DNA from: a virus
Lineage: Duplodnaviria > Caudoviricetes
DNA: 42,450 nucleotides
Reading direction: 5' to 3' (one strand)
Virus record (IMG/VR): IMGVR_UViG_3300012921_000049
Coordinates: 1 to 42,450 of that record
Below, piece after piece: positions 1 to 39,031 of the stretch (the first letter of the stretch is position 1; each line of letters begins with the position of its first letter). Both the position numbers and the translations under genes were made by a program. A model generated the notes under the pieces. That model was given only the letters and a program-made list of their open reading frames with translations, was not told the DNA's origin and made no database searches.

Positions 1-294
1 ATGAAGAAACAAAAATCGACCATCCCGGGCGTCGCTCAATCTGATATCGATGCGTCATTCGCCGGACCGGCGATATTGGCAAACCGGTTCTTCGTAACAT
101 TTACCAATGCCGGAATGAGAATCGCTTTTACGGAGCAATCGAGCCCAACCGCTCCGGCGGCGTTTCGCACAGCGGCAGTTATGTCCATGCAAGACGGCAT
201 CGCCCTTAAAAACCTTCTCACAGATCTGCTCGCGCCGGTCGAAAAACAGATGCGAGACGAATTAGAGCGCGGCGGCAAAGAGAATCCTGGCTGA
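1..294 (+). CDS. Small hypothetical protein (DUF3467-like pattern)
   Basis: 97-aa ORF with ANRFFV..MRIAF..AAVMS..ALKNLL pattern; lower GC; followed by a terminator hairpin. Confidence 0.65.
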   Translation: MKKQKSTIPGVAQSDIDASFAGPAILANRFFVTFTNAGMRIAFTEQSSPTAPAAFRTAAVMSMQDGIALKNLLTDLLAPVEKQMRDELERGGKENPG

Positions 295-315
295 TGGGGC
301 GACCCTTGTCCTGAC

Positions 316-347
316 AAAAAAAGCCCCGCCGTTTCCAGCGGGGCTTT
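316..347. terminator. Bidirectional rho-independent terminator
   Basis: AAAGCCCCGC-cgtttcca-GCGGGGCTTT stem, A7 on the left and T-rich on the right, between convergent genes. Confidence 0.85.
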
Positions 348-376
348 CTCGTTTCAGCCAGGCGCTAGGCCCAGAC

Positions 377-805
377 TCAGTTCGGGGCTGGTTCGCCGGT
401 CACTGCTTCATGGACTTGATCCGCGGCGAGCCATGCGGCGTTCCACGCCGTGGTACGAGCCCCCTCCTTCGATGGGCGTGGTGCCTTCGGATGGAGGAAA
501 AGATCGACGCTCTTCGTCATCATCTCGAACAAATAATTGAAGGTCTGCTGGGCCTGTGGATGCCAGTCATTCCACTTTTCACCACCAACGGCATGCTTGT
601 TCGAGACCGCCGGCGCGGCATCAAACACAGCGCCAGGCTCGTACTTGGCCAAGGCTTGGGCCGCCAGAATGGCGTGAGCCTCATTGTCGAACAGGCCGGT
701 CGTGCTGGGCCCAACCCCATTGGCACTGGTCGCGTAGCGGGTCACCATGTAGCGGGTCACCGGGCGCACCCGGTATTCGATCTTGGTCTTGATCTTCTTG
801 GTCAT
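377..805 (-). CDS. Hypothetical phage protein
   Basis: 142-aa ORF; GGAGAAGG ribosome-binding site; IEYRVRPVTRY..TRY N-terminus. Confidence 0.75.
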   Translation of the reverse strand: MTKKIKTKIEYRVRPVTRYMVTRYATSANGVGPSTTGLFDNEAHAILAAQALAKYEPGAVFDAAPAVSNKHAVGGEKWNDWHPQAQQTFNYLFEMMTKSVDLFLHPKAPRPSKEGARTTAWNAAWLAADQVHEAVTGEPAPN

Positions 806-817
806 GGCCTTCTCCAG

Positions 818-935
818 CCCCCGCAGGGGCCATGCCGATAGTCGTATCGGCGACGATCAGGGCGATACGCCCGATCTCGTGATCCCATGTTGATTTTTTC
901 GACCTCCAAAGAGGCGGCGAAAATTAACATGGGTC
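818..935. other. Intergenic array of four adjacent hairpins (possible structured RNA or leader)
   Basis: CCCC/GGGG, GCCGATA/TATCGGC, GATC-GGGCG/CGCCC-GATC, and a long CCCATGTT...AACATGGG stem enclosing CCTC/GAGG. Confidence 0.45.
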
Positions 936-947
936 TATCCGGATGAA

Positions 948-1541
948 TTACCGCGCCAGGGCTGGCGCGGATTCCTTGTTACGCGTGCCGAACCACCACA
1001 GCACGCAGGTCGTGGTCAGGTAGAGGATCGTGTCGATGATCCGCTTGATGATGGCGCTCGCCTCCACCACCCCCAGTTTCAGGCCGAATTCATCGATCAG
1101 GCCGCTGGCCTCGTAGTAGATCAGCGTGGTGAGAATGCAGAGATAGACGGTCAACGCGGGCCGAACGCAGCCGCGCACCATGTCGGTGAACGCCATCATC
1201 AGCCAGCCGGCGGCGCCGATCCGGCCACCCGGCGCCCTGATGCCTTCGGTGTAGCGCAGCGGCTCGGAGCGGAAGGACGCGGCGAAGGCCTGGGAGTCCG
1301 CCACGTCGCGCTTGGCATCACCCTCTTCCTGGGCCACCTGCACACGCCCGGCCCATTCCTGCCGCGCACCTTCCAGATTCAGCCGGAGGATATTCTCGTT
1401 GTGGCCATACAGCAGCCGGCTGGCTTCCAGCTTGATCTGCTCGGCCTTGAAATCAGCATAGCGCTGGATCGCCACCCCGAGCAGGCCGGTAAGGCCGCCC
1501 GAGAGAACTGACGACAAGGTGCCGGTGATCAAATCCCACAT
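948..1541 (-). CDS. Putative holin (3-TM, GTA-holin-like)
   Basis: N-terminal hydrophobic helix, coiled region, VRG.VRP.LT motif, C-terminal TM ending WWFGTR; overlaps the putative endolysin gene. Confidence 0.7.
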   Translation of the reverse strand: MWDLITGTLSSVLSGGLTGLLGVAIQRYADFKAEQIKLEASRLLYGHNENILRLNLEGARQEWAGRVQVAQEEGDAKRDVADSQAFAASFRSEPLRYTEGIRAPGGRIGAAGWLMMAFTDMVRGCVRPALTVYLCILTTLIYYEASGLIDEFGLKLGVVEASAIIKRIIDTILYLTTTCVLWWFGTRNKESAPALAR

Positions 1542-1963
1542 GGCAATATCTCCAGTTCAAAGGGCGCGAAGGCCATGGCGGTTTCAAGCGTGGAAATCGC
1601 CGGCGCGGAACGCAGCACAGCCTTCTGTGATTCGATATGGCCCAGCGCCCGGCCGAGCGCGATGCAGCCATTGAGCTGCGCCCGGAAGCCGAGCGCCTTG
1701 TCGCCCATCAGGTTGGCGGCATGGATGCGCACGCCGCTGCGGCCAGGAACCCGATCCACCAGGTACATGAGCCGCTTGAAGGCCGGGCTCCAGGTCCAGA
1801 GGCAGCGATAGAGCCCTGGCGGGATGCAGGAGATGTTTGGCGCGTTGCCGCGATCCGGCAGCTCGCCGGTGAACAGCATGCGGCCATCGGGCAGCACCAG
1901 GCGGCCGAACGTGCCCTGATCGCCGGTTTCCAGGCGCTGCAGGAGCAATCGCGGCGCAGACAT
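1529..1963 (-). CDS. DUF5675-family protein, putative endolysin (L,D-transpeptidase-like His/Cys)
   Basis: TFGRL..ELP..N..SCIPPG.Y..VPGRSG.RIH.AN..GCIALG motifs; lies in lysis context. Confidence 0.8.
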   Translation of the reverse strand: MSAPRLLLQRLETGDQGTFGRLVLPDGRMLFTGELPDRGNAPNISCIPPGLYRCLWTWSPAFKRLMYLVDRVPGRSGVRIHAANLMGDKALGFRAQLNGCIALGRALGHIESQKAVLRSAPAISTLETAMAFAPFELEILPCGI

Positions 1964-1966
1964 GGC

Positions 1967-2164
1967 TCAGCCGAGCGCCAGCGACCACAGCCAGGTGGCC
2001 ACTACCAGCGCCACGCCCAGCACGAACAGCAGCGCCCCGATCACTGCGCAGCCCACCTCATGGCCGCGGCGCAGGAAACGCCAGCGATCACCCGCGATGC
2101 CCAGCGCCATCAGGCCGCAGCCCGCCAGCATGATCACAAGACCTAGATTGCTGAGCGCTTCCAT
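1967..2164 (-). CDS. Small two-TM membrane protein (holin/antiholin-like)
   Basis: 65 aa from ATG 2164, just after the upstream stop; two hydrophobic segments separated by RWRFLRR. Confidence 0.6.
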   Translation of the reverse strand: MEALSNLGLVIMLAGCGLMALGIAGDRWRFLRRGHEVGCAVIGALLFVLGVALVVATWLWSLALG

Positions 2165-2165
2165 C

Positions 2166-2492
2166 TCAGGCGCCCTTGGCCGGCCTGAAGCGCGCCCAAT
2201 CGCCGCCCGAGCCGATCTTGCAAACCGCATCCTGGCCCACCAGCGTGAGCGTGATGGCCCAGCGGCCATGCGAGCCCTGCCAGGTAGTCCACACGTCATC
2301 ATCGCCATCCTGGCGCGCAGAGACGGGCTTCATCTCCAGCGCCTCCAACTGCGCCAGCATCGGCCCGGCATCGGCGCAGAATACCGGCAGGCTGCCATTC
2401 GGCTCAGGCGCCGCAGGCTGCGCCCATGCGCGGGCCGCGACAAAAGCCAAGCCAAGCAACATCACCACACTCATCGCACTACGCTGTCGCAT
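2166..2492 (-). CDS. Exported protein with Sec signal peptide and two Cys
   Basis: AAGGAG RBS before ATG 2492; basic N-terminus, hydrophobic core, AWA|QP cleavage motif. Confidence 0.75.
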   Translation of the reverse strand: MRQRSAMSVVMLLGLAFVAARAWAQPAAPEPNGSLPVFCADAGPMLAQLEALEMKPVSARQDGDDDVWTTWQGSHGRWAITLTLVGQDAVCKIGSGGDWARFRPAKGA

Positions 2493-2514
2493 GGCATGCT
2501 CCTTTGTGGAAAAG

Positions 2515-2853
2515 TTAGAAACCGCGACGCGCGCGGTGATACGGGTCGAGCCAGGGTGCTGCGATGCGAACCCACCAGCGCGCGGCCGGCTGGCGCTGCT
2601 CAAGCCTGGGCAGGTCTTCGGCCACGCTCTCGGCCGCGAGATCGATGACCCACGGCATGGGCCGCAGCATGCGCAACATGCGCTGCACCACCTCGGCCCG
2701 GTATTCGGGCGGCAGCGCCATCAGGATCTGGATGGCCCGCCAGGGCCGCAGTTCGCTCAGCACGACCGCGGTGGCCTGCGGGTAATAGTCGACCAGATAC
2801 TTGGCCGTCACCGGCACCGGCAGGGCGGAGAGCCGCTTGAACGCTGGGCGCAT
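2515..2853 (-). CDS. FliG middle-domain (FliG-M)-like protein
   Basis: AGGAG/GGAG RBS before ATG 2853. F..L.....AKYL..YYPQATAVVLS.L....A..IL..LP.E...EVVQRMLRM matches the FliG E(H/Y)PQT.A.(V/I)LS armadillo-like motif. Confidence 0.75.
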   Translation of the reverse strand: MRPAFKRLSALPVPVTAKYLVDYYPQATAVVLSELRPWRAIQILMALPPEYRAEVVQRMLRMLRPMPWVIDLAAESVAEDLPRLEQRQPAARWWVRIAAPWLDPYHRARRGF

Positions 2854-2864
2854 CGGCTCCGCTC

Positions 2865-3074
2865 CTATCGCTTGGGCCAGCGTTCCCATATCCAAGCCGC
2901 AGCCCCGACCAGCAGCAGCAGCAAGCCGCCGATCTTGAGCAGCGCCCACCAGGCGCCGCGCCCCATATTGGCGGCCGCGATTAGCTGATCGAGCTTGGCG
3001 TCGATCTCCTTCAGCCACGCATCCGTGCCTTCCTGGCGCGTCTCGAGCTTCGCTATGCGCTCTTCCGGTGTCAT
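2865..3074 (-). CDS. Small coiled-coil + TM protein (XhlA/holin-like)
   Basis: ERIAKLE..IDAKLDQL followed by one TM helix; first gene of the lysis cassette. Confidence 0.75.
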   Translation of the reverse strand: MTPEERIAKLETRQEGTDAWLKEIDAKLDQLIAAANMGRGAWWALLKIGGLLLLLVGAAAWIWERWPKR

Positions 3075-3104
3075 CGCGGTCTCCGAATTGTCTGGCCGGC
3101 TGAA

Positions 3105-6100
3105 TTACGGGGTGCCGTAGGCTTCGGCGATGGCCGAGCGTTCCTGGCGGGTCTTCTTCGGTGCGCCGCGATCCCGGGCCCGGGCGCCGATCTGCTCTTC
3201 CTGCACGCGGGCGCGAAGCGTGGTGGAACTGATCATGATGCGGCGCGAGATTGGCGCGGTCTTGTTGTATTCCGCGATCTCGAGCCGAACCGCGTTGATC
3301 GCCTCATAGGCTTCCCTCTTCTTCACCGGATCCTGCTCCACCAGCATCTCGGCATAGAGCCGGGCCAGCTTACCCGTGTAGCCGGCCTGCATGCCGGCCA
3401 CGGCGCGGGATTCGCGCTGCTGGGCGTATTCGGACTCGCGCCGGTTCGCGATATCGGCGCTGGTGAACCCGACCGCCTTCATGGCCACATCGGCCGCGCC
3501 GATCTCACTCGCGGGGATCACGACCTTGCCGGTCTGCTGCGAGCGGATGCCAGAGTTACTCCAGGCCACGGCCTGCATGGGGTTGCGCAGGAACTGCGGC
3601 ATGAATTCCGACGCCGCCAGTAAGGCGTCGCCTCGCTTCAGGTTATTGGCGGCGCGCTGCAGGCGGCCCAGCGTGAGCTCACCCGGCACACCGATGCTGT
3701 CCGCCAGGCTGTCGGGCGCGATCTGCCCCATGCCGATGCGGCCCGACAGATCAATCCCGGCGGCGCGCGGCAAGCCCTTCACGATGGCCTCGGCGATCAG
3801 CGGTGAGCCGGTGAGCCGGGTCATGCCGCGCCGAATCTCGGTCTCGATATCGAGGTCGCGATCCGTGCCAAACTTGTAGATCCGCTCGGCCCAATCCTTC
3901 ATGTCTGATCCGGCCGGGATGCCGAACAGGCCGCCAAACGCCACCAGCATGGCGGCAATGCCAGCAAAGGCCAGCCGGCCCTCGGGGCCGCCATTCTGGG
4001 TCAGGCGCCAGAACAACTCCAGCATCTGCATGGTGAAGCCTTTGAACTGCAGCAGCCATGACCCAACGCCGCGCATGGCCTCTGGCCGGTTGATCTTGCC
4101 CATCCGCAGGTGGGTCTCATCGATCACCCAATCCGCCAGGCCGGCCGGTGTCTGGTATTTTTCATCGCCAGCATACAGGGGATCACGGCCATAGACGGTC
4201 TTGGCCCGCGCCATGACGGACTTGTCCTGGCCGAGCCGGTAAGTGGCGACAAAGGTGGCTAGCCGATTGAAGCGCTCAGCCGCAGTGAAGACCGAAGCCG
4301 CGACCTCGGCAGCGGCGCGCAGCTTGTCATCCACGCCGCGCAGCGCCTTGTTCCGGCCCTGGGCGGTGGCCATCTGCTCGTAGGTCTGCTGCGGCACCAC
4401 GAAGCCCTCTTCCCAGGCCGCCCGCAGCGCGTCCCGCACATCGCTCGGCGCTTTCTCGATATCGAAAATCTCGACGCCCTTCTCGCGGATGCTGAGCATC
4501 TTCATCACGTCGGCGCTTGCCCGGATCAGTTCGGCATTGGCCCGCCCCATGCCGGCGATCTGCGCCAGATACGGCATCGAGATCAGCGGCACCTGGGTCA
4601 CGTTGACCAGGGCCGACGAGATGTTACCCGCCAGATAGTAGAAGAACGTGATGGCACGCGCCTTCTGCCACTCCTCCTGGGGGGAATTGACATAGTCCCG
4701 GTACCGGGCCGCGTAGAGGCGCAGCTTGGCCTGGATCGGGGGGATGGCCTTCAGCGCATCATCGAACTCCCGGCCCGTGGCGCGGCGCGAGAGATAGCCC
4801 GACAGGCCCACGATGTAATCCGCCAGGCCGCGCTCGAAATCGACCGAGTAGCCCGCGGTGTTCTTGGCGCCGAAGAAATGCTTGTTGAAGCTGCGGGCCC
4901 GCAGGGCGGCATCGATCGCGTCACGCACTTGGGCATAACTGTCCTGATCCGCGCCACCGGAAGCCGCCAGCACGTCGATATCTTGCAGCGACACACCGGC
5001 CCGCTCCATGGCGGCCGGGGCGATCTCGAACGGACCCGACACCTTGTGGCCGGGATACTTGGCCCGCACCGCCGCGACCCGGCGCGCGATGCGGCCCGAG
5101 GCCAGGCTGCGGTTCGCGCGGCGCCAGAACGGGCCATCGGTTTCCAGCTTCTCAAAGTGGACCACTTCGCCATCTTTGTTCTTCACCACCAGGCCCATAT
5201 CGCCGTAGCGCATGAACGGCACATACCCGGTTCGCTTCGCGTTGGCGATCTCATCCAGGATCTGGGCCGTCTCGTTGCGATGCTGCGCTTCGATCTCCGG
5301 CATGTCGGCCCGGATCGAGGCCCGCATGGCATCGGCCGAGCCTGGCCCGCCCGGGCCGCCATATCCGCGCTCGTCCAGCACGGCTTCCTGGAGCAGGTCC
5401 AGCGCCTTATCCATGGTGGCCCGCACGGAGCGATATGCCTCACCTTCTTCCGGGCTCAGCGTGATGCGTTCGCCGAACCGGCTCAACTCGGTATCGCCGT
5501 GCCGGTTCACCGCCCCGATGGTGGGCCCGTCATAGGTTTCATTCTGCAGGCGGCCCAATTCCAGCACGGCATCGACCCGGGTCCGGGCCTGGGGACCGAG
5601 CGATTGATAGGGCTTGAGCAGGCTGGACAGCTGCGCCGCGGTGGCATCCCGGAGTTGGAGCTGCGCCGTGGCGGCGCGCCAGACCCGGGTGAAGGCCGGG
5701 AAGGTGCTGGCCAGCATGCGGGGGTGCAGGGCGAAGCGTTCCGCCCAGGTCAGGTCGCGGGTCAGCGGCAGGCGCGGCGCGGCGCGCCAATCCTTGAACG
5801 AAGCCAGGGCGGCATCGAGGATCGATTGCTTCTCGGTGCTGAGCGGCTCGGCCAGCGGCACCGGCTTGGCGCGCTGCTGTTTGACGCCTGCGGCTGCGGC
5901 GGGAGTATCGGCGCTGAGAAGTGTTAATTCGCCAAGCACCTTACCCATCTCGGCAACAATTTTCTCGCGGCCACGCTGTATAGCGGTGTCCTGGCTGAAC
6001 GGACCAGCCGTATCATAGACATCTACCAATCGCGCCCCATTGTCGGCTCGCTTCAAGTACCAAGTTTTGCCAGAATTGCTCTGGTTGGCCGTGATATTGC

Positions 6101-9100
6101 CCGCACGGACCTGAGTATCAAAATCGCCCAGGCGTTCGGAGAGGCGCTGATAAAACTCAGAGAGTCTCTTGGATTCCTTATTATTCGCCCTGGTCGCCTG
6201 AGCTTTCGCGACGCGGGAAACTACGGACGGAAGCTCCTTGCCGGACCGCTTCGCAAGCCAAGCAATGGCGTCTTTCCAATCTCCAGAATGTGCATCCTGG
6301 TGCAGGCTGCCCTCGGGCGAGACCTCAAAATCGGCTTCTCCGTGCTGCATCTTGTAGGAGGGCGGCAATGCGTGGTCCGAGACCCGGATCTTGAGCGTTT
6401 CCCAATCCACCGTATCGCCATCCTCGTCGAATGCGATTGGCCTCACCAACTCTATGTAATGGGAATGCGACAGGTTCGAACCGAATTTGCGATCGACCGA
6501 CCAACCAGATTGTTCAGCATATTTCGCGATCAGCTCGGCGGCTCGATAAATTTCACCGCCCCGCTGCGCCATAACGTCCATGGCGGACTCCCGAGGCTGC
6601 TCGTCATCCAGCGGGAATTCCGATTTCGCGACCCGGCCCGTCTCGATCTGGCGGAACACATCGGCCCAGGTCGGGGTGCGGCCGAACGCCTTGGTCAGGA
6701 TGGCCCGCAGCTCAGCCAGGAATTCCTTGATCTTGGCAAACACCGCCGCCACGCCCCGGGCCGGCGCGGCGCCGCGCGACGCGAATTCCTCCGCCACGGC
6801 TTCCTCGAGCCGGGCCTCTTGGCTGAGGTCGGGATACCGCGCCGCGATGCCGTGCTTCTCGATCCAGCCCTGTTCGGCCGCGGCCCGCTCCAGCACGGCC
6901 CAGCGGGCCTGATCCAGCAGGCCGGTCTCGCGCAAGACATGGATCGCCTCGTGCCGGGCCGTGGCAAGTGGATCGGGGGCGGTCAGGCTCAGCGCGACTA
7001 GATTCTCGATCGGGGCAAAGGCGCCCGATACGCCGGTCGTAGAACCGTCCGGGCCACGGCCCAGGAGGCGATCCGCCACTTCGACCCGCAGGCCTGGCCG
7101 GCCCGTCATGCGGGCAAGCGCGCCACCGGTCAGCCGCGCCACGCTCTCGCGCTTCGCCTGCCATTCCGGCGCCAGGCTATACTCGCCGCTCAGGTCTGGC
7201 GCCAAAACCCGCCGCACCGGCCCAGAAGCGATATTGTCGCCCGGGCGAAACTCGGCTATGCTCCAGACGTCGTCGGGGCGGCCATTCCAAGGCGTTAGGC
7301 GCTCGGCCTTCACGGTTGAGCCACCCTCGGGGCCCTGAGCCCTCGGCCCGGCGGCGTCATCCCAGCGGTTCAAGGAGTAATGGAACGTGCCATCCGGCAG
7401 TTCCCGAACCGTGACCACCACATCCACCGGCGTTTCACCGATCATCACCCGGGCCGCGTATTTGTGCCACGCCTTGATGCGATCCGCGCCATCCCGGTCC
7501 GGCTCGGAGCCGATCAGCACGCCCTTCTCCAGCACGGCCGGGATGGCCGGGATGGCGCGGGCCAGGTGCTCGCCGATCCGGCCTGTGCTTTTCCGCGTGC
7601 CGCGATTGTCGAAGCCGATCGTGCGGCCATCGCTGGCCGTCACGCGCGTGCCGATCAGATTGGCGGCGTACCAGGTGCGGGCCTGTTCCAGGAGGCCGCG
7701 CAGATCCTCGGCCGGCGCTCCGAGTTCAGTGCCGGTCAGCCTGGCCGCGACCGGGAGATCATCACCGGTCTTGATCTCGGGCTGGCCGGACTGGCCTTCG
7801 CGCTGGAACAGCGGCACACCCTGCAGCACGGCGTCACGCATGGCCGGCGTGATCTCCATGGCATGGGCCTGAACGGTGCCGCCCGGCTCGTGGGTTATCC
7901 GAACCCCGCCATTCTCTTCCGCCCAGGCATCGGCCTCAGCTCTGGTCTTGAACTCGGCCTCGATCACCCCGCTTGGGTCGGTGTCGTCCCTCGCCTTCCA
8001 GGGCCTTGGATCCGGTGCCCCGGCGCTCACCTCGGCGCGGTTCACGCCCGCGCCGAAGCGCTTGCCCCACTTCGCCGCGTAGGCGGGGAGTATCTTGTCG
8101 TAGAAGCCCCGCATCCCATCGCCGCCGACCTTGAGATCGACTCCACCCAGCCTGGTGTAGCCGGTCTGAGAATCGATACTGCCCTCGTCATCGGAAATCT
8201 TCTTGGCCAGATCCTTGCCGAGAATCCCCTCGACATCACCGACCGGCGTGTTGGCGCGGGAAAAAACATTCCTCAGCATGCCATCACCAACGCGCCTGTA
8301 GGCGTTGATGCTCACCGTCTCGCCGTTGGCGGATTTGGCATAGTCGATCGCATTGATCTGCTTGCTCAGATCATATCGATCGGCCTGCTGGTCGCCGGTG
8401 GTCCACGCGATCCGGTCAAAGCCATTCTCGGCGGCCCAGCGTACGGCGCGGCGGAACGCGGCTTCGTGCCAGGTGGATTTCAGCGGCGCGTCCGGTACTG
8501 AGGCCGTTGCCCCCATCCAGGCCCGCATGGCTTCCCGCGTAGCCTGCTCGGCCTCGGCATAGCCCGGGGCATCGGTGCGCGTCTTGGCCTGCGCCTCAAT
8601 GGCTGCATCATAGGCAGCCTTCAGCTTGGCCTCATCGCTCCTATAACCCTTTTTCCGCCCCGCCTGGTGCCAGTCGGACTGAATCTCCTCGATGAAGAGG
8701 ACGCGCCGGCCATCGGCATCGGTGCGCTCGTTGAAGCGGATATGGGCGAGGATGTTCGGCGTATCGAAATGCCCGCTCACGAACTGCGCCGGCCGCCCCG
8801 AGGCCTGAGCATTCATCTCTTCGACGCGGCGACGCGCGTCTCCATAGTTGCCCGCGAACTGGCGCGAGCCAGTTTCTTGATCCACGATATAGGTACCGGG
8901 TCCATCCCCTTCGACCCGGTACCGCTTAGTGGTTTTCTTCTCCGGCATGGTCAGCAATAGCTCGCGGTATTCCTTCCCGCCGGGCAGCGTGTAGGAGTCG
9001 AAAAGCGATGGTCGCTGGCCAGCGGTTTTCCGATAAGCGGATCGCTCATCCTCGCTCATCCGCCGCCAGAGCTTTTCGCTCAACTCGTGATACTCACGCA

Positions 9101-9614
9101 CGGCCACATCGTCCCTGGGCTGAAGTGTGATTTCCTTGATCCCAACCTCGTTGTCGCGCAGGTATTGGGCCACGGCTTCGCGGGTCACAGTCCCTTGCTG
9201 TACCGAGAGCCAGTCCGACACCCCGGACCAATCGATCTCTTCCTGCTTGACGCCCTTCTGGGTCAGGTTGCGGATCGAGGCGGCCCATTGCTGAGCCGGT
9301 GCCTTGGGCTGCGGCATGGCCTCTACGGCCCGGGTCATGGCCGAATAGAACGGCTTGGCCGGCGCTTCGCGCTGGAATTTGGTCTTGGCCCGATCACGCT
9401 TTGCCGTGGCGGGCGCCGGAGCGCGGCGCGACGGCGCGGGATTGGCATTGAGGAACGCCACATCTTCCCGGGTCAGCTCGCCCGTGCCGGCCGCCACCTT
9501 GGCCCGGATCTCCGCCTTGCGGGCTTCGATCTGGTCAGGGCTCATCAAGGCATCCGCCGGCGGACTGTCAGGCAACTCCGCCGGCGGCGCCTCGACAGGG
9601 GCCGCTTCCGTCAT
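3105..9614 (-). CDS. Large polyvalent virion/ejection protein, C-terminal part (EEIQSD domain, LPD3-like, HExxH zincin-like, PLxRFG/LPD38-39-like C-terminus)
   Basis: 2169-aa ORF. Motifs FIEEIQSDW (~8680), HEAIH..EEAVAE (~6945), GYVPFMRYGD (~5215), AERFNRLATF..LLQFKGF. In frame with the upstream ORF across one TAG. Confidence 0.85.
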   Translation of the reverse strand: MTEAAPVEAPPAELPDSPPADALMSPDQIEARKAEIRAKVAAGTGELTREDVAFLNANPAPSRRAPAPATAKRDRAKTKFQREAPAKPFYSAMTRAVEAMPQPKAPAQQWAASIRNLTQKGVKQEEIDWSGVSDWLSVQQGTVTREAVAQYLRDNEVGIKEITLQPRDDVAVREYHELSEKLWRRMSEDERSAYRKTAGQRPSLFDSYTLPGGKEYRELLLTMPEKKTTKRYRVEGDGPGTYIVDQETGSRQFAGNYGDARRRVEEMNAQASGRPAQFVSGHFDTPNILAHIRFNERTDADGRRVLFIEEIQSDWHQAGRKKGYRSDEAKLKAAYDAAIEAQAKTRTDAPGYAEAEQATREAMRAWMGATASVPDAPLKSTWHEAAFRRAVRWAAENGFDRIAWTTGDQQADRYDLSKQINAIDYAKSANGETVSINAYRRVGDGMLRNVFSRANTPVGDVEGILGKDLAKKISDDEGSIDSQTGYTRLGGVDLKVGGDGMRGFYDKILPAYAAKWGKRFGAGVNRAEVSAGAPDPRPWKARDDTDPSGVIEAEFKTRAEADAWAEENGGVRITHEPGGTVQAHAMEITPAMRDAVLQGVPLFQREGQSGQPEIKTGDDLPVAARLTGTELGAPAEDLRGLLEQARTWYAANLIGTRVTASDGRTIGFDNRGTRKSTGRIGEHLARAIPAIPAVLEKGVLIGSEPDRDGADRIKAWHKYAARVMIGETPVDVVVTVRELPDGTFHYSLNRWDDAAGPRAQGPEGGSTVKAERLTPWNGRPDDVWSIAEFRPGDNIASGPVRRVLAPDLSGEYSLAPEWQAKRESVARLTGGALARMTGRPGLRVEVADRLLGRGPDGSTTGVSGAFAPIENLVALSLTAPDPLATARHEAIHVLRETGLLDQARWAVLERAAAEQGWIEKHGIAARYPDLSQEARLEEAVAEEFASRGAAPARGVAAVFAKIKEFLAELRAILTKAFGRTPTWADVFRQIETGRVAKSEFPLDDEQPRESAMDVMAQRGGEIYRAAELIAKYAEQSGWSVDRKFGSNLSHSHYIELVRPIAFDEDGDTVDWETLKIRVSDHALPPSYKMQHGEADFEVSPEGSLHQDAHSGDWKDAIAWLAKRSGKELPSVVSRVAKAQATRANNKESKRLSEFYQRLSERLGDFDTQVRAGNITANQSNSGKTWYLKRADNGARLVDVYDTAGPFSQDTAIQRGREKIVAEMGKVLGELTLLSADTPAAAAGVKQQRAKPVPLAEPLSTEKQSILDAALASFKDWRAAPRLPLTRDLTWAERFALHPRMLASTFPAFTRVWRAATAQLQLRDATAAQLSSLLKPYQSLGPQARTRVDAVLELGRLQNETYDGPTIGAVNRHGDTELSRFGERITLSPEEGEAYRSVRATMDKALDLLQEAVLDERGYGGPGGPGSADAMRASIRADMPEIEAQHRNETAQILDEIANAKRTGYVPFMRYGDMGLVVKNKDGEVVHFEKLETDGPFWRRANRSLASGRIARRVAAVRAKYPGHKVSGPFEIAPAAMERAGVSLQDIDVLAASGGADQDSYAQVRDAIDAALRARSFNKHFFGAKNTAGYSVDFERGLADYIVGLSGYLSRRATGREFDDALKAIPPIQAKLRLYAARYRDYVNSPQEEWQKARAITFFYYLAGNISSALVNVTQVPLISMPYLAQIAGMGRANAELIRASADVMKMLSIREKGVEIFDIEKAPSDVRDALRAAWEEGFVVPQQTYEQMATAQGRNKALRGVDDKLRAAAEVAASVFTAAERFNRLATFVATYRLGQDKSVMARAKTVYGRDPLYAGDEKYQTPAGLADWVIDETHLRMGKINRPEAMRGVGSWLLQFKGFTMQMLELFWRLTQNGGPEGRLAFAGIAAMLVAFGGLFGIPAGSDMKDWAERIYKFGTDRDLDIETEIRRGMTRLTGSPLIAEAIVKGLPRAAGIDLSGRIGMGQIAPDSLADSIGVPGELTLGRLQRAANNLKRGDALLAASEFMPQFLRNPMQAVAWSNSGIRSQQTGKVVIPASEIGAADVAMKAVGFTSADIANRRESEYAQQRESRAVAGMQAGYTGKLARLYAEMLVEQDPVKKREAYEAINAVRLEIAEYNKTAPISRRIMISSTTLRARVQEEQIGARARDRGAPKKTRQERSAIAEAYGTP

Positions 9615-9629
9615 GGCGGGCGGCGCGGC

Positions 9630-11543
9630 CTATGGAGGGGAACGGGTGCTGGTGGGGATTTCCTGATAGGCGAGCGGGGCCTTGGTGCGCTTGGGATCGG
9701 CCAGCCACACCTTGAACTCCGGCACGGTCATCTCCGTGATGGCCCCGATGCGGCGCAGCGCGGACCCATCGCTGAACGCCGCCCGGTAGGCGTTGATCGC
9801 GCCGGCCCGGTCGAAGCCGGCCATCACCTTGTGCTCGTCGAATCGGCCCGTGCCGGGATCGATCTGATCGACGATATAGACGCTGGGCGCTTCCAGGCCG
9901 GGGCCCAGGTAGATATCCACCTGATCGCCGTCGAAGCCCTCGCTGCGCTTCACATAGCCGTAATGCGCCGGCATGGTGACGCTCCACGGCTTGCCATCGG
10001 GATCGGTGCCGCGGCGTTCCGAGCCAGCCGGATTCTCGATCGAGAGGTCTAGGCCGTTCCACTTGATATGGGCCTTGCGATAATTGCCGGCCGCCTTCTG
10101 GGCATCGCTCGGCTCTGGCGCGACCCGCTCCAGCGCGGCCTGGTCGATCGCCTCCGGCGTGCTGGGGCGGAGCGGCGCCTGGCGCGAGCCGTCACCGATC
10201 GAACTGCCATCCCCCAGGAAGGGATTGGTATCGACGGGCTGCAGCACGGGTGCCGCAGCGCTGGGCTGCTCCGTAACCAAACCCGATACAGCGGTGTTTT
10301 GCGCAACCGGGGCAGGCTGGACTAAGGGTTGCGGGAAGGCCGGTATCTCATCATCGATCGCGGCGCCGGTCGGCGTGGGCTGCACGGCTGCAGTGGCCGG
10401 TACTGTCGGCGCCACAGGCTCAGATGCGGCTTGGCCAGGGCTGGGCGCGGTTGGCAACGGGTCGGCGTCTGCCTGCTGCTCCTGGGCGTCCTGAGGCACG
10501 TTAGCCGGCAGAGGCCGCTGCAGGCCGCGAGCCCGGCCATAGAGGTTCGCCCCGCCACCCGTGGCACCACCCATGGCGCCGCCCACCACGGCGCCGGCCG
10601 TGGCGGCATTCACCACGCCTTGCCCGGTCGGGATGGTGGCATCGGCGCGCTGCTCGGCCACATTCTGGATCGCCTGTTCGGCCGCGCTCTGGGCGGCCTC
10701 GACCGGCACCTCGGTCGCGGCCCCGATCGCGATGGAGCGGCCCAGCGAGCGCCCGCCGCCCCGCACCAGCGTCTCCATGACGGCGCCGCCCGGCCCGCCC
10801 AGGGCGGCCGTGGCCAGGCCGGTCTTGATGCCGGTCTCGCCCGAGATGCGGCGCGCCAACTCGTCACGCGCCGCCTGGGCGCGTTGGGTCACGGGTAGCG
10901 CTTCGTCCTGCTCGGCCATGATGGCCTGGAATTCTGGCGCGGCCGCGAGCCGGTCGAGCGGCAATTCCCTGACCCGCTTCTCGACCTCGGCCGCGTTCTG
11001 GCCCGCCGTGAGGATACCCTCGGCCGCGCCATAGCCGATCGCACCCGCGAGCCAGGGCGCCACCTTGCCGCCGATCTGCAGCACCTTGGCGCCGGCGCCG
11101 CCCGGCAGCAGGCTGGCCGCCGTGCTGGGCAGGCTGGCCGCCACGTTGAGGCCAATCGCGGCCGGATTGGTCAAGGCTGGGCCGGGTGAATAACCGGTGA
11201 TGCTGTCCGGATTCTCTACTGCGAATTCCTGCGCCATGGCGGCCCGCCCGGCGGGCGACATCCCGGCCCGGGCCTGCTCGGATCGCGACTGGCCGAACTC
11301 GACGATGGCCGGCCCGGTCTCGTCAGCACCGGCCCATTTCGCGAGCTGGCCAACACCGGCCACCGTCTCGAACGCACCTGATTTAATCGCCTGCCAGTAA
11401 TCGGCCAGGCCCACGCCGTCACCCTGGGGCTGGAACGGGTCATGCTCGATCGGCTCCAGTTTCAGCTTGCGCGGCCGCGGTGCTTCGATCGGCGCCGCCG
11501 GGGCGCCGCTGAACGGATCGGTGTCGATCGGGACCAGCTTCAA
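9630..11543 (-). CDS. Large polyvalent ejection protein, N-terminal part, with inorganic-pyrophosphatase-like domain
   Basis: Likely TTG start overlapping the upstream TGA. Gly/Ala helices, then AGNY.K..IENP.GS.R..HYGY..DGD.VD..FDEHKVM.GF, typical of the polyvalent-protein pyrophosphatase domain. Confidence 0.8.
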   Translation of the reverse strand: MKLVPIDTDPFSGAPAAPIEAPRPRKLKLEPIEHDPFQPQGDGVGLADYWQAIKSGAFETVAGVGQLAKWAGADETGPAIVEFGQSRSEQARAGMSPAGRAAMAQEFAVENPDSITGYSPGPALTNPAAIGLNVAASLPSTAASLLPGGAGAKVLQIGGKVAPWLAGAIGYGAAEGILTAGQNAAEVEKRVRELPLDRLAAAPEFQAIMAEQDEALPVTQRAQAARDELARRISGETGIKTGLATAALGGPGGAVMETLVRGGGRSLGRSIAIGAATEVPVEAAQSAAEQAIQNVAEQRADATIPTGQGVVNAATAGAVVGGAMGGATGGGANLYGRARGLQRPLPANVPQDAQEQQADADPLPTAPSPGQAASEPVAPTVPATAAVQPTPTGAAIDDEIPAFPQPLVQPAPVAQNTAVSGLVTEQPSAAAPVLQPVDTNPFLGDGSSIGDGSRQAPLRPSTPEAIDQAALERVAPEPSDAQKAAGNYRKAHIKWNGLDLSIENPAGSERRGTDPDGKPWSVTMPAHYGYVKRSEGFDGDQVDIYLGPGLEAPSVYIVDQIDPGTGRFDEHKVMAGFDRAGAINAYRAAFSDGSALRRIGAITEMTVPEFKVWLADPKRTKAPLAYQEIPTSTRSPP

Positions 11544-13255
11544 TTCTGCACCATCAGGTATTTGCCGGGCCGGGCCGGATCCGGCACATACCACTTACCG
11601 TCCTGCGCCCGGCGGGCGCCTTCCACCGGCGGGGCGTCAGCGCCCGCCGCAGGGCTGGCCTGATCACCACCGAACCGTTTCGCCAGATCGCCCTTGCCCA
11701 GCGCGCCCAGAGTAGCGGTGGCGGCCCGGGTGCCCTTCTCGGGGTCGTAGGTGGTCTGGTAGCCCACGGTCTGGCCCGTGATGGGATCCTTCTTCTCGGA
11801 CGTGACCGAGCCGCCGATCTTGCTGGCCTGCAGGGCGAGCTCCATCGCTTTCTCGTCCGTCACCCCCTTGGTCAGCGGCTGGCCGTCGGCGCCGGACAGC
11901 ACCTTGACCTGGGTCGGGTCGCGTGGGTTCAGGGCGATGAAGTGATCCCCGGCCGGGGTGATGTTGAACGCGGGGTTCTTGACTTCCCATTCCCGCAGCG
12001 CTTGAGCGGAGGCCGCGATATCGACCTGGCGGCCCGTGAGGCCGAGCTGCTTTCGGTTCAAATCCATCTGCTGGGCGAATTGCTGGGCGCGCTGATCCAG
12101 GTTGGCGCGGAACTGAGTATCGCTCTGCGCCATGCCGGCCCGCGCGATCTCTCCGCTCTGCCGGGTCGATTGCTCCTGGTTGGCCACGCCGCGCTCCTGG
12201 ATGGCCCGTACGGCGGCACGATCCGCCTTGGCATCGGCGCGCTCCTTGCGCTGTTCCATGCTGGTGATCGCCGCCAGCCCGCCCTCGCCGATCGCCCCCA
12301 TGGGGGTAACGCCGGGCCGCCCGCCCGCCGCCATGGTGGCCAGGCCGAACCGGAGCAGGTTCTGCAGGGCATCATCGGAGATGCCTTCCAGCATGCCGCC
12401 TGAATTGGTCGCACCGCTTGGCAGGATGCCGTAATCCCCCACCCGCGTCCGGGCCCCGTTGGGCGTCATGCCCGTGGCGGGGACGGTGGCCTGTTCGGCC
12501 GACAGCGCGGGAACATCCATGCCAAACCCAAGCTCGGGCGGCATGGCGGCGGTGGGTGCGAGGGCCGGCGCCGCTGCGGGCCGGGGCTGGCTCACCTGCG
12601 CGGGCAACGGCATGGGCATGGTCTGGCGCACCAGTTCGGTCTCCGGGCCGGGCCGATCCGTGGCGGCCAGCGCGCGGGCGAAGGTATTGCCATAGTCCAC
12701 GGCATTGGTGCGGGCCATGGCGGGGGTCAGCGCGGTAGCGGCGGGCTGGGTCGGGCCGGCCATCTCCTGTTCAGCACTGAGCGGCGGTGCGCGGGTTGGG
12801 CCGGCCTGGGCCATCTCCTGGGCGGCCAGTTCCTCGGGCGACATGCCGGATCGGGCCGCACCGGAGGCAAAGCGGTTGGCCTGCCCGATGCCGCGCAGCC
12901 GGGCCATGGTATCGGGACCGGAGAAGACCGGCAGTTGGGTGGTGTCGCGCGGCACCGCGACGGGCTGCACCGGCATCGGCATGACGCCCTGGTCATTCGC
13001 CGCGGGGCGGATCATCTCGGCGAAACGCTTCAGCGCGCCGGGCGCCGGCGCGGCCGGACCAGCCTGGGCCGGGGTGACAAGGTCGGTCGCCTCGGGCTGG
13101 TAGGCGGGACCCGGCTGGGCTGGAGCCGACATGGCGGCCATGATCTGCTGCCTGATCATGGGATCGGCCCTCACCGATTGCGCGATCTGCTCGGCGGCCT
13201 GGCGATCGCCCGACTTGGCCCGGTCCATCAATTTGCGGATCTGCATGGCATCCAT
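11540..13255 (-). CDS. Putative DNA ejection (internal virion) protein
   Basis: 571 aa, Ala/Gln/Pro-rich; LLRFGLATMA..G.IGEGGL motif; between pilot and giant protein genes. Confidence 0.7.
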   Translation of the reverse strand: MDAMQIRKLMDRAKSGDRQAAEQIAQSVRADPMIRQQIMAAMSAPAQPGPAYQPEATDLVTPAQAGPAAPAPGALKRFAEMIRPAANDQGVMPMPVQPVAVPRDTTQLPVFSGPDTMARLRGIGQANRFASGAARSGMSPEELAAQEMAQAGPTRAPPLSAEQEMAGPTQPAATALTPAMARTNAVDYGNTFARALAATDRPGPETELVRQTMPMPLPAQVSQPRPAAAPALAPTAAMPPELGFGMDVPALSAEQATVPATGMTPNGARTRVGDYGILPSGATNSGGMLEGISDDALQNLLRFGLATMAAGGRPGVTPMGAIGEGGLAAITSMEQRKERADAKADRAAVRAIQERGVANQEQSTRQSGEIARAGMAQSDTQFRANLDQRAQQFAQQMDLNRKQLGLTGRQVDIAASAQALREWEVKNPAFNITPAGDHFIALNPRDPTQVKVLSGADGQPLTKGVTDEKAMELALQASKIGGSVTSEKKDPITGQTVGYQTTYDPEKGTRAATATLGALGKGDLAKRFGGDQASPAAGADAPPVEGARRAQDGKWYVPDPARPGKYLMVQN

Positions 13256-34976: not shown

Positions 34977-36434
34977 TTAGGTGGCATGGCTGGGTGGCTC
35001 GAAGGCGATCTGCCCCTGCCGGTGATCAATCCGGGCCCGGGTCGCGATGGGGTTGAAGCTGTTCGTCGCGGCGTCGTAGAACACCTTTGCCGTGCCGATC
35101 TGGCCCTGCCGAACCTTGGGGATGATCACCTCCATCACGCCGCGGCTCATCTCTAATTTTTCGCTCCAGGCGAACCACTCCGGGGTGTCGGTCTTGGGTT
35201 CGGCACGCTCCAGGTAATACTCATCCCTGTAGGTGAACATCACGATATCGGCGTCCTGCTCGATCCCGCCGCCATCCCGCAGGTCGTTCATCTGGGGCCG
35301 CTTGTCGGGCCGGTTCTCCAGGTTTCGGTTGAGCTGCGACAGGGCGATGATGGGCACGGCTTGGTCGCCCGCGACCCCCTTCAGCCCTGCGCTGATCTCG
35401 TTGATCTCGTTGGTCCGGTCGCCTTTGTAATGATTTCCCGGGCGGACCAGTCCCAGGTAATCGAGAAACACAGCCTTTATCCCGTGCCGCCGGCGCGCGG
35501 TTCGGATCAGGGCCTCGATCTGGCCCAGCTTGATGCTGCGGTTCGTCACCAGGTAGAACGGCATGGCGCTGAACGCCGGACCGGAGATTTGCACCAGATC
35601 GGCGATCTGCTCGGTCGAGAGCCGATTGATCGACCGCATGTCGCGATACGTCACCCCGGAGGCGTTCGACAGGCTGCGCTGGCCCAACTGCTTGTTGCTC
35701 ATCTCGAGTGAAAAGAACAACACCGGATCACCGGCCCGGGCCATGTTGAGCGCCATCCCGAGCGCTAGCGCGGTCTTGCCCATGCTGGGCCGGCCGCCCA
35801 GGATGGCGAGATCGCCAGGCTCCAGCACGCCCAGCAGGTCATCGACCTGGGGGATGCGGGTCTGCACCCCGACATATTCGCCCCGGTGGCGCCGATCAGC
35901 CTCTTCCACGCCTTCCTTGACGGCCGCGAAGATGTGGACAATCGGGATGCTGTCGCCCAGCCCGGTCTCAACGATCCGAGACAGGCCGGCATTGGCTTCT
36001 CCGGCCAGATCGGCCGAGGTCTTTTTGACTTTCGCGTCCAGGGCTTCCCGGGCCAATGAGTTGGCCCAGATCGCGATTTCCCGCCGGGTGGCCAGATCCT
36101 TAACCACCCGGGCATAATCCTCGGCGCCGATGACCGTGGTGGCGTGCAGCGCGAGCCGGGCCAGATAACTTGGCCCGCCGATCTCGGCCAGCAACTCGTC
36201 GCGTTCAAATTGTGCCTTAAGGGTGACGGGATCTGCACGCTCGCGGCGCTCAATCACCACCGCGATGGCCTCAAAGATGCGCCGGTGCGCCTCGTTGTAG
36301 AAATGCTCCACACTGAGGAAGCCGCTGACCCGGTGATACGCCTCATTATTGACCAGGATCGAGCCAAGCAATTCCTGCTCGGCATCGAGGTTGTGCGGCA
36401 GTGGGCCGGTGTCGGTCAGGGCGAGCTGGCTCAT
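34977..36434 (-). CDS. dnaB: Replicative DNA helicase, DnaB family
   Basis: PHNLDAEQ.LLG, GRPSMGKT, FSLEMS, DYL.L, LSQLNR..E.R..KRP...DLR..G.IEQDAD; start at the ATGA overlap. Confidence 0.96.
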   Translation of the reverse strand: MSQLALTDTGPLPHNLDAEQELLGSILVNNEAYHRVSGFLSVEHFYNEAHRRIFEAIAVVIERRERADPVTLKAQFERDELLAEIGGPSYLARLALHATTVIGAEDYARVVKDLATRREIAIWANSLAREALDAKVKKTSADLAGEANAGLSRIVETGLGDSIPIVHIFAAVKEGVEEADRRHRGEYVGVQTRIPQVDDLLGVLEPGDLAILGGRPSMGKTALALGMALNMARAGDPVLFFSLEMSNKQLGQRSLSNASGVTYRDMRSINRLSTEQIADLVQISGPAFSAMPFYLVTNRSIKLGQIEALIRTARRRHGIKAVFLDYLGLVRPGNHYKGDRTNEINEISAGLKGVAGDQAVPIIALSQLNRNLENRPDKRPQMNDLRDGGGIEQDADIVMFTYRDEYYLERAEPKTDTPEWFAWSEKLEMSRGVMEVIIPKVRQGQIGTAKVFYDAATNSFNPIATRARIDHRQGQIAFEPPSHAT

Positions 36435-36877
36435 GACCACCGCTCCCAAAGCTGTTTTGGCTCAACCGGATGCTTATCGGCGCGCGGACGGGACGGACAC
36501 GACCACGATCCGCCATCGGTAAGGCGCACATAGGTCCAGCCGGCGGCGCGCAGGCTCGTGCCAGGTTCATTCGCCAGAATGTAGGTGCCGATGCGACGAT
36601 ACCCGAGCGCGAAGCCTGCCCGCGCTGCCGCGCCGTATAGAAAAGAGCATGTATTCTTGGCGCCATTGGTGCATAGGCGCACCACTTCAATCGTGCGGCC
36701 ATCGTCGCGGGCACGCGCGACCGGCCTACCCAATATTGCCACCCCGACCAACGCATCATCGATAACTGCGCCGAGCGATACTTTATGCCCGGTCACGGGC
36801 CCGTGGTGGCGGTGAAGCTCGCCAACGAAGGCGTTCGCCTCGCGCAGATGGATCGGGATCAGCCTGAGGCGGCTCAT
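36431..36877 (-). CDS. XF1762-family (Mom-like GNAT-fold) protein
   Basis: EANAFV...HRHH, VGVAI.GRPVAR..DDG..EV.RLCT, S.LYGA, TY....E.G.SLRAAGW; own ATG overlaps the natural stop of the methylase. Confidence 0.85.
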   Translation of the reverse strand: MSRLRLIPIHLREANAFVGELHRHHGPVTGHKVSLGAVIDDALVGVAILGRPVARARDDGRTIEVVRLCTNGAKNTCSFLYGAAARAGFALGYRRIGTYILANEPGTSLRAAGWTYVRLTDGGSWSCPSRPRADKHPVEPKQLWERWS

Positions 36878-37747
36878 CCTGCCATCCCCGCCAGCATGCA
36901 GGATTGCTGATGGCGCCCGGCATCGATCAACCCTTGCCAGGCCACGCCGTTGATCCACAGCACTTCCAGGCGCGGCCGGGCGCCATCGGCCAGCGCCGCG
37001 AATTCCACACGCCGCCAATCGGCCAGCGCGTCGTCGTAGAGCGGCGACGCATAGCCGCACAGCACCACCCCCCCCCCGCAGGCTCCGCAGGAAGGCCAGC
37101 AGCTCGGCATGCTGGGCATCGGTCATTTCATGCTTGTAGCCATGATAGCCATTCTTGGTGCTGCGGGTTTGCGACAGGTAGGGCGGGTCAACAAAATGCA
37201 GCGTGCGCTCACGATCATGCTGGGCCATCACCTCGATGGCCGAGCGATGCTCAATGGTCACGCCGGCTAAGCGCGCGATCAGCGCCGGCAGGCAATCGGG
37301 ATAATGCATCCAGTCATGCGCCGGCGTGGTGCCGCTGCGCGAGGATGTCGCGCGGAAGCCGGTCTTCACGCTGGCCTTGGTGGCGCCATCCGAGCCAAAA
37401 CCCATGAAGCTGCGGATGATCAGGCGCCGCGATAGCTCGACCGGATCATCACTCCATTCATAGGCCTGCTGGAATTCCACCCGCGCGAAGGGCGTGAGCC
37501 GCAGCGCCTCGATCAGCTTCGGCGCCAGCATTTCATCGCGCAGCACGCGGAACAGCGTCACCACCTCATCATCGAGATCATTATAGACCTCGGCATAGGA
37601 GCGCGGTTTGCGCAGCAAAATGCTGGCCGCCCCGCCATAGGGCTCCACATAGGCATGATGCGGCGGCAGATAGGGCAGGATTTTCGGCGCCAGTTTCCAC
37701 TTGCCGCCATGCCAGCGCAAAACGGGGCGCTTTGGGGTAGCGTTCAT
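36874..37747 (-). pseudogene. dam: Dam/D12-class N6-adenine DNA methyltransferase, frameshifted by one extra base in a G10 tract
   Basis: W.GGK..LA, YVEPYGGA, EVYNDLD and DPPY in one frame; conserved C-terminus VVLCGY..LY...L..W..EVLWIN in another; G9 would join them into 290 aa. Confidence 0.85.
37068..37077 (-). repeat. G10 homopolymer at the frameshift
   Basis: C10 on the plus strand; the longest homopolymer I noticed in the window. Confidence 0.9.
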
Positions 37748-38361
37748 GCCGCCACCGCCGGCCGGTCCAGCTTGCCGACCTGGTTGCCCCAGGCGTCCCA
37801 GCCCTCGGCTGTGGAGCGGGCGAAGAGTTCGATGCGCGGGCCCTGGAACAGCTGGGTCAGTTCGGCCCGCAGGTCGGCCGGCTTCTCGGAATGTATCTTG
37901 GTGCGGGGCGCGAAGAAGGCGCCGCGCGGCTTGGCACCAATGATCGGCTCGGGCCGGCCCCGCTTGCAGATCAGCAGATCCTCGGAATCACCCGTGGTTT
38001 CGAACCCGGGCCCGCGCGCCTGGCTGTCATGATAGATGAACGCGCCGCCCGCCTCTCGGGGCCACAGCTTCACCCAGACCCGCTTGGTGGAATACTTGAA
38101 GCCCCATGCCTGGAACACCTCGCGCGGCCCGAACCTGAGATGCGCGATGGGCGGCGTGATCCACAGGAACAAGCGGCACCCCTCGGGATGCGCGAGGCGG
38201 CCCACATTCAGCGCCGCGATATCCCGCAGCGGCATGGTGGGGTAGTGCCGGTTCGGATTCTTGTTCGGCCCCGAACTGAACTTCCACGGGGGATCGGCCA
38301 GGATGACCCGGTAGCGCCCGCCCGGCACTTGATCGAGCGGTATGTCGAGATAGGCGGTCAT
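37744..38361 (-). CDS. MT-A70-family adenine methyltransferase
   Basis: YRVILADPPW, HYPTM, LFLW, AWGF.Y, HSEKP, RIELFAR, GWDAWGNQ. Confidence 0.92.
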   Translation of the reverse strand: MTAYLDIPLDQVPGGRYRVILADPPWKFSSGPNKNPNRHYPTMPLRDIAALNVGRLAHPEGCRLFLWITPPIAHLRFGPREVFQAWGFKYSTKRVWVKLWPREAGGAFIYHDSQARGPGFETTGDSEDLLICKRGRPEPIIGAKPRGAFFAPRTKIHSEKPADLRAELTQLFQGPRIELFARSTAEGWDAWGNQVGKLDRPAVAA

Positions 38362-39029: not shown

Positions 39030-39031
39030 GA

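Follow-up and report, generated by a model that had tools for sequence, protein, structure and literature searches.

We identified in a podovirus-like prophage a small gene whose 112-aa product (P0002) is a member of the FliG_M domain family, not a FliG. The gene corresponds to the middle domain of the flagellar switch protein FliG, stands outside any fliF-fliG-fliH-fliN operon (the fliG of related bacterial genomes lies inside one) and is tightly packed among phage genes. What the protein does is, in our view, an even call between a decoy for FliM, produced at a late stage of infection, that would stall or mis-switch the host flagellar motor, and all other readings taken together. The observation of the gene is solid, and the function is a proposal, drawn from sequence for a subfamily of two members. 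Below, the window refers to the whole stretch of viral DNA that was analysed (42,450 nt), and host-type denotes the proteins of Ferrovibrio-type genomes related to the prophage host.

The domain assignment rests on profile searches and on the predicted fold. P0002 matches Pfam FliG_M with an E-value of 3.5e-11 and 43.6 bits, over the cut-off of 25, whereas MgtE_N (PF03448), the rival family named in the original prediction, reaches E 0.06 and 14.3 bits, under its cut-off of 25.9. In a PDB sequence search with P0002 the best nine matches are all FliG. AlphaFold2, given a 70-row alignment, predicted eight helices with a pLDDT of 89.9; with the two phage rows alone the core helices were unchanged (pLDDT 80.0), and in both models the C-terminal tail is the least certain part. 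Foldseek searches with the 70-row model returned only FliG in the 18 rows listed for ranks 1-19, the best of them at E 2.6e-3 and no row under E 0.001, and the model superposes on 8wo5, 4fq0, 4qrm and 3soh with an rmsd of 1.0-1.4 Å over 70-77 columns. MgtE structures appear at rank 20 and lower with a TM-score of at most 0.47; together with the HMM score below cut-off, these lower ranks rule out an MgtE_N identity. The FliG_M identity first proposed from the letters of the DNA is thus borne out by HMM and predicted fold, and so is the claimed absence of the FliF-binding N domain and of the torque helix: in Pfam, P0002 matches neither FliG_N (PF14842) nor FliG_C (PF01706), the frame stopping at 2515. 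An N-terminal FliG_N domain would find no room, because the in-frame ribosome-binding site and the upstream gene occupy the 5' side. P0002 belongs to no PHROG family (E 0.1), and no viral model matches it at E 0.001 (best E 1.1); neither search thus places it in a holin, spanin or endolysin family.

The open frame with its own ribosome-binding site is as originally described, and the peptides quoted at the time are present in the translation (Table 1). Its GC3 of 0.87 is like that of other genes of the same phage, and its codon adaptation index of 0.70, calculated against five phage genes, is the highest of the six frames, the rest lying at 0.29-0.61. A 270-aa plus-strand ORF (2176-2988) and the other overlapping frames were treated as shadows, given their lower index. 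Positions 1-6000 of the window are unbroken in contigs of four out of four public sequencing runs, with one base difference, all four being possible sources of the window itself; the locus is therefore no assembly chimera. A frame-shifted or mis-assembled full fliG is likewise ruled out by the unrelated phage genes on both sides and the identical assembly in the four runs. A scan for sigma-70-type promoters in window 1-4000, ill-suited to this host, found none where 1.0 was expected.

Table 1. Coordinates of the features discussed (window positions unless a record and contig are named).
Feature	Position	Strand	Remarks
Stand-alone FliG-M-derived gene, 112 aa (P0002)	2515..2853	(-)	Intact; ATG 2853, TAA 2515
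Shine-Dalgarno AGGAG	2862..2866	(-)	8 nt before ATG; overlaps TAG of upstream 69-aa gene
Pfam FliG_M (PF14841) match	2602..2805	(-)	Residues 17-84: armadillo-like helices and helix-MC equivalent
Y-Y-P-Q, residues 23-26	2776..2787	(-)	EHPQ/EYPQ loop, Glu replaced by Tyr
Arg58, R of EHPQR motif	2680..2682	(-)	Kept; 65/66 FliG rows and both phage copies
Trp/Arg-rich amphipathic tail, residues 87-112	2518..2595	(-)	Last 13 residues 12/13 identical in P0003
Giant virion/ejection-type protein, 2169 aa	3105..9614	(-)	Last structural gene upstream of cassette
Upstream 69-aa gene, hydrophobic C-terminal stretch	2865..3074	(-)	Putatively holin-like; PHROG E 0.026-0.09 only
Downstream 108-aa gene, signal-peptide-like start	2166..2492	(-)	No family
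Very hydrophobic ORF, 64 aa	1967..2161	(-)	Start uncertain
DUF5675 / phrog_1501 gene	1529..1963	(-)	Putatively endolysin-like
phrog_6637 membrane protein	948..1541	(-)	Adjoins DUF5675 in Vibrio phages too
G001 switch-kit locus besides FliG	L008 1006-2901	(+)	
G001 switch-kit locus besides FliG	L012 1480-1863	(+)	
G001 switch-kit locus besides FliG	L013 1474-1920	(-)	
G001 switch-kit locus besides FliG	L173 11814-12347	(+)	

CheckV puts the window, an IMG/VR provirus, at 67% completeness; its genes for terminase, portal, capsid, ejection-type and giant virion proteins share one direction. The giant virion protein is spread over window 3105-11594 (-) as two ORFs, one of 654 aa with a DarB-like match followed by that of 2169 aa, and both match separate parts of phrog_30335. 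The original prediction described the FliG-M gene as tiled between lysis-cassette genes. The tiling is indeed tight, with 11 and 22 nt to the adjoining genes, but none of the neighbours carries a curated lysis annotation, so the label is presumptive and drawn from position and hydrophobicity. DUF5675 was found in none of 40 genomes of the host's order, which offered no related prophage for comparison.

Beyond the window lie a tRNA-Val and a PBP1A gene. The latter shares 89% identity with two genomes, one of them named Ferrovibrio sp., and judged by this flanking DNA the prophage host is a Ferrovibrio-like alphaproteobacterium. The tRNA-Val(CAC) gene (L002 9294-9368 (-)) is found about 440 bases past the left end of the window; since the likeness to Ferrovibrio genomes ends there, it is the likely attachment site. 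A single full fliG and a single fliM occur in each of the five Ferrovibrio-type genomes. With the host-type FliG, P0002 shares 42% identity over residues 2-77 (32 of 76 positions), and this is its closest FliG row among those compared, the next having 31 identities. The comparison supports the alphaproteobacterial, EYPQ-type source suggested at the outset, and P0002 was likely taken from an alphaproteobacterial fliG.

The phage protein has kept much of FliG-M and changed at telling places. Of 22 FliG-conserved positions, 13 are retained in both P0002 and its only close relative, P0003, among them P25, Q26 and R58, and host-type FliG residues stand in both copies at Y24, P25, Q26, A29, R58, R61, M62 and V69. 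In the loop itself, D-Y-Y-P-Q, a Glu present in 64 of 66 FliG rows has given way to Tyr, and in P0003 to Phe. P0002 therefore lacks the complete EHPQR/EYPQR FliM-binding motif, with Y, P, Q and R kept and the Glu gone. In Vibrio, PMC6290876 reports that FliG E144W abolished motility and left 8% of cells flagellated, as opposed to 28%, and that R179H led to loss of flagella. Given an aromatic residue at this position in both phage copies and a non-motile E144W mutant, coupling to FliM is probably altered by the change from Glu to Tyr or Phe.

Residues W38, I41, W68, W93, W94 and W101 are new and common to the two copies. P0002 has five Trp and a net charge of +7, compared with one Trp and -1 in the corresponding stretch of the host-type FliG; P0003 is also Trp-rich and cationic (+6), and its tail too is amphipathic. 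The tail of P0002 by length replaces the linker and first FliG-C helix of FliG, and its amphipathic nature, noted from the beginning, is confirmed for residues 92-102 (hydrophobic moment 0.62, mean hydrophobicity 0.20). At the protein level the tail shows no likeness to FliG (937-1859 of 2000 shuffles scored as well), and at the DNA level only a weak one to fliG (25 of 2000 shuffles and 1 of 60 fliG windows as good). This non-FliG tail is the stretch best kept between P0002 and P0003, its last 13 residues giving p 0.035 for a window picked after looking.

How could such a fragment contact the motor? The joint between FliG-M and FliM-M is made by the EHPQR and GXXG loops (PMC7355467). In the C-ring, FliG touches FliM through this loop together with two helices and helix MC (PMC11528121), and P0002 retains these contact elements. 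Structure prediction with a Ferrovibrio-type FliM-M, one of the checks first suggested for this gene, yielded the canonical interface. ESMFold2 gave the pair a score of 0.83, the best of three controls reaching 0.02; the mark applied is attained by 116 of 157 solved complexes and by 2 of 215 mismatched pairs. At least 88% of contacts recur between runs, with a partner pLDDT of at least 80, and the predicted interface comprises P0002 residues 22-30, 57-66 and 69-80 and FliM residues 86-119, including the GGRRG loop, in agreement with the contact elements described for the C-ring (PMC11528121). Since similar complexes have been solved, and since FliG supplies 66 of the alignment's 70 rows, a passing score shows likeness, not binding. 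Interface residues are not preferentially kept, neither relative to host-type FliG (9 of 24 identical versus 23 of 55 elsewhere, p 0.81) nor between P0002 and P0003 (14 of 24 versus 37 of 55, p 0.46).

If P0002 acts as a decoy, it would dock on the GGRRG loop of host FliM, as the model predicts, at the place of the real FliG, while offering neither torque helix nor FliF link. Keeping the FliM-facing elements without these two parts suggests that FliM bound by P0002 would create a dead slot or gaps in the rotor, or that free FliM would be held back. The cationic amphipathic tail may anchor the protein to the inner membrane close to the basal body. Expression would fall in the lytic cycle, given the tight co-orientation with late genes, and the likely benefit would be that the cell ceases to swim, or settles, ahead of the burst. 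In Caulobacter, disturbing the flagellum or chemotaxis is reported to increase adhesion (PMC11580411), and by analogy settling of the infected cell before lysis is possible. The effects on lysogens raised in the original prediction, a block of superinfection or a shift to biofilm, fit less well than a lytic-cycle role; superinfection exclusion in lysogens is less likely because the gene sits in the late region.

A different contact within the rotor may also be considered. In the C-ring, FliG-CN sits on the upper surface of the adjacent FliG-M (PMC11528121), and with most of its helix-core residues retained P0002 could offer its armadillo face to the C-domain of host FliG and thereby end the FliG chain. 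We consider this improbable: two conserved positions that may lie on that face differ in the phage, Leu16 (57 of 66 FliG rows) being T/A and Ala41 (58 of 66) I/I in the two copies.

The gene is rare. Among 88 matches drawn from 1.84 billion representatives, P0003 alone matches over the full length at high score. It has 112 aa, is 66% identical without any indel, scores 36.1 bits with FliG_M and comes from a 5.4-kb contig; it provides a second intact copy of the gene. Two further matches, P0010 and P0011, are repeat proteins and were ruled out as relatives; with these and P0003 set aside, FliG_M was found in all 27 scanned of the 85 remaining matches. Among the GenBank phages no relative of P0002 was found (best E 0.7), and searches of IMG/VR for close relatives with gene context gave none in 17 stretches for P0002, 4 for P0003 and 9 for P0014. 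The latter is a diverged FliG-M of 129 aa with the start point of P0002; it looks stand-alone, but we do not count it because its contig measures only 727 bp. A metagenome scan returned 3 of 202, namely the P0002 locus itself and two chance matches in another reading frame; of these, L003 was read. Full FliG is also matched by five unannotated GenBank 'phage' records, possibly host DNA, of which four measure 3.6-15 kb.

Could P0002 then be a chance piece of fliG that is drifting without function? Its rarity would fit (two proteins, among 21 and 76 candidates), and so would the lack of any stand-alone copy in the host's order, where all 37 FliG matches in 40 genomes are open frames of 322 aa or more. 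(A wider alphaproteobacterial survey found FliG in 258 of 401 genomes, with 407 matches.) Nonetheless, two copies that are 34% apart share frame, exact length, fold and both ends (8/8 and 12/13 residues), and the P0002 gene has a clean ribosome-binding site, tight tiling and phage-like codon use, making a neutral relic very improbable.

More weight attaches to the possibility that the scaffold came from fliG and has been repurposed for a late, non-flagellar role, most likely at the inner membrane next to the holin-like neighbours, for example in lysis timing, by way of its cationic, Trp-rich surface and tail. In a tree of 80 columns (43 rows intended, 3 left out for want of the full core) P0002 and P0003 group as a single clade (100/100) of uncertain placement, whose stem measures 1.8 changes per column, compared with end branches under 0.2 for the majority of alphaproteobacterial FliG-M rows. 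This long stem speaks for repurposing. The lost motif Glu, the new Trp and Ile residues shared by both copies, the charge of +7 and +6, the nearly identical last residues (with the caveat on their p-value given above) and the position among genes for membrane or secreted late proteins point the same way. Nevertheless, both copies retain P25, Q26, R58, R61 and M62, which map to the predicted FliM face, P0002 matches no PHROG family or viral model, and another virus couples a similar fragment with FliM-M (see below). Repurposing seems to us rather unlikely. The decoy, for its part, has to contend with a subfamily of only two members, a missing Glu, the stem of 1.8, only 13 of 22 FliG-conserved positions retained, an interface that is not preferentially kept and a best-kept stretch that lies in the non-FliG tail.

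The original prediction called for a search of phage genomes for homologues, and three further viral records from IMG/VR carry FliG or pieces of it among non-flagellar genes (G001, G002 and G440). The scans relied on short exact patterns, so all counts from them are lower bounds, including that for FliM, which was found in G001 and G002 only (2 of 73 stretches). G002 (359 kb, 36% GC, 32 tRNAs) comes closest to our case: a stand-alone FliG-M of 130 aa (L016 3989-4381 (+)), which begins at the same helix as P0002 and P0014, is followed by a stand-alone FliM-M of 172 aa with its GGRRG loop kept (L016 4378-4896 (+)), and the two genes overlap by ATGA. The pair is located near SmpB, a tRNA-like gap and phage-family genes, and nothing else in G002 matched the proteins of two Ferrovibrio flagellar regions. 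The common starting helix and the overlap with FliM-M suggest that cutting FliG-M at this point keeps the pairing with FliM. A single clade of P0002, P0003 and the G002 fragment was not rejected (p-AU 0.14), leaving separate origins unsupported.

G001 is larger (543 kb, uniform 46-52% GC, 65 tRNAs). It has a full FliG between virion and tail-fibre genes (L005 4680-5696 (+)), a FliG-C fragment preceded by a hydrophobic N-terminal stretch, FliM, two FliN and three receiver-domain ORFs, two of them CheY-like by eye; these switch genes are scattered among phage genes, and no FliF was found in the record. Close to its FliG we also observed an arginyl-tRNA-protein transferase family gene (ATE_N, ATE_C; L005 3592-4335 (+)). 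G440, a record of 19 kb without a FliM match, holds a full-length EHPQ-type FliG (L195 3605-4681 (+)) among small non-flagellar ORFs, unlike the FliG-M alone of P0002. G001 and G002 likewise differ from our phage, as they have FliM partners and an intact motif Glu in very large genomes, whereas P0002 stands alone, is far more diverged and belongs to a small temperate phage.

The overlapping pair of G002 raises the thought that P0002, too, binds a FliM-like partner made by the phage, apart from the host motor. The window represents only 67% of the prophage and the partner gene could lie in the remainder; yet the window itself holds no match to FliM, FliN, FliF or a receiver domain, and we regard a private pair as scarcely probable. 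Returning to the decoy, a broader scenario is conceivable, in which alphaproteobacterial phages captured parts of the switch ring to control swimming, from the near-complete kit of G001 through the mini-pair of G002 to P0002, a membrane-tethered rotor poison or switch lock acting just before lysis. We put this forward tentatively, with slightly less than even confidence.

P0002 resembles the FliG of the FliG-M/FliM-M complexes (PDB 3SOH, 4QRM, 4FHR, 4FQ0) and of the Salmonella C-ring in its FliG_M match, predicted helices, YPQ and Arg, helix-MC equivalent and predicted interface with the GG loop of FliM. It departs from them as a free-standing phage gene of 112 aa without FliG_N and FliG_C, with Tyr (Phe in P0003) for Glu and with a cationic, Trp-rich surface and tail. 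Among phage products, PfsE of Pf phage embodies a similar idea, binding the host appendage part PilC and suppressing motility (PMC8764522); its target is type IV pili and superinfection exclusion was shown by experiment, whereas P0002 is a rotor fragment of the late region known through its sequence. YIP peptides of PB1-like phages also lower motility and raise biofilm formation, but via the diguanylate cyclase YfiN and c-di-GMP (PMC8085984), not via the motor as proposed for P0002. FssF of Caulobacter is an extra C-ring-like protein of an alphaproteobacterium, though PMC11580411 presents it as a chromosomal FliN homologue supporting chemotaxis, neither phage-borne nor derived from FliG. P0002 is best classed with the phage proteins directed at the motility machinery of the host.

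The original prediction knew of no described phage FliG mimic. A full-text literature search, with most subscription papers outside its scope, gave no report of a phage FliG, FliM or flagellar-switch mimic either, the three records above included. The phage motility inhibitors described in the literature found act on type IV pili or c-di-GMP, and a phage protein built from the rotor is absent from it. If the decoy reading is true, manipulation of the flagellar switch is within the repertoire of even a small temperate phage, and a genetically encoded brake of 112 aa would be at hand to probe how the C-ring of alphaproteobacteria assembles and exchanges subunits and how their motor is linked to surface sensing. 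The change from Glu to an aromatic residue, made by nature, offers a ready test of that residue at the FliG-FliM joint. Should the protein instead have been repurposed, it would clearly exemplify how a motor domain can become a late protein of a phage.

Finally, the prophage has other features worth recording. At its end, two convergent ORFs of lower GC and without family (window 1-294 (+) and 377-805 (-)) flank an inverted repeat near 317-354, and these are possible accessory genes. An ORF at 38358-39170 (-) has a C-terminal match to the cell-cycle regulator GcrA (E 4.6e-8) and adjoins two DNA methyltransferase genes (36431-38361), and the ORF at 39648-40286 (-) matches ribosome modulation factor (RMF) over the cut-off (E 9.4e-9).
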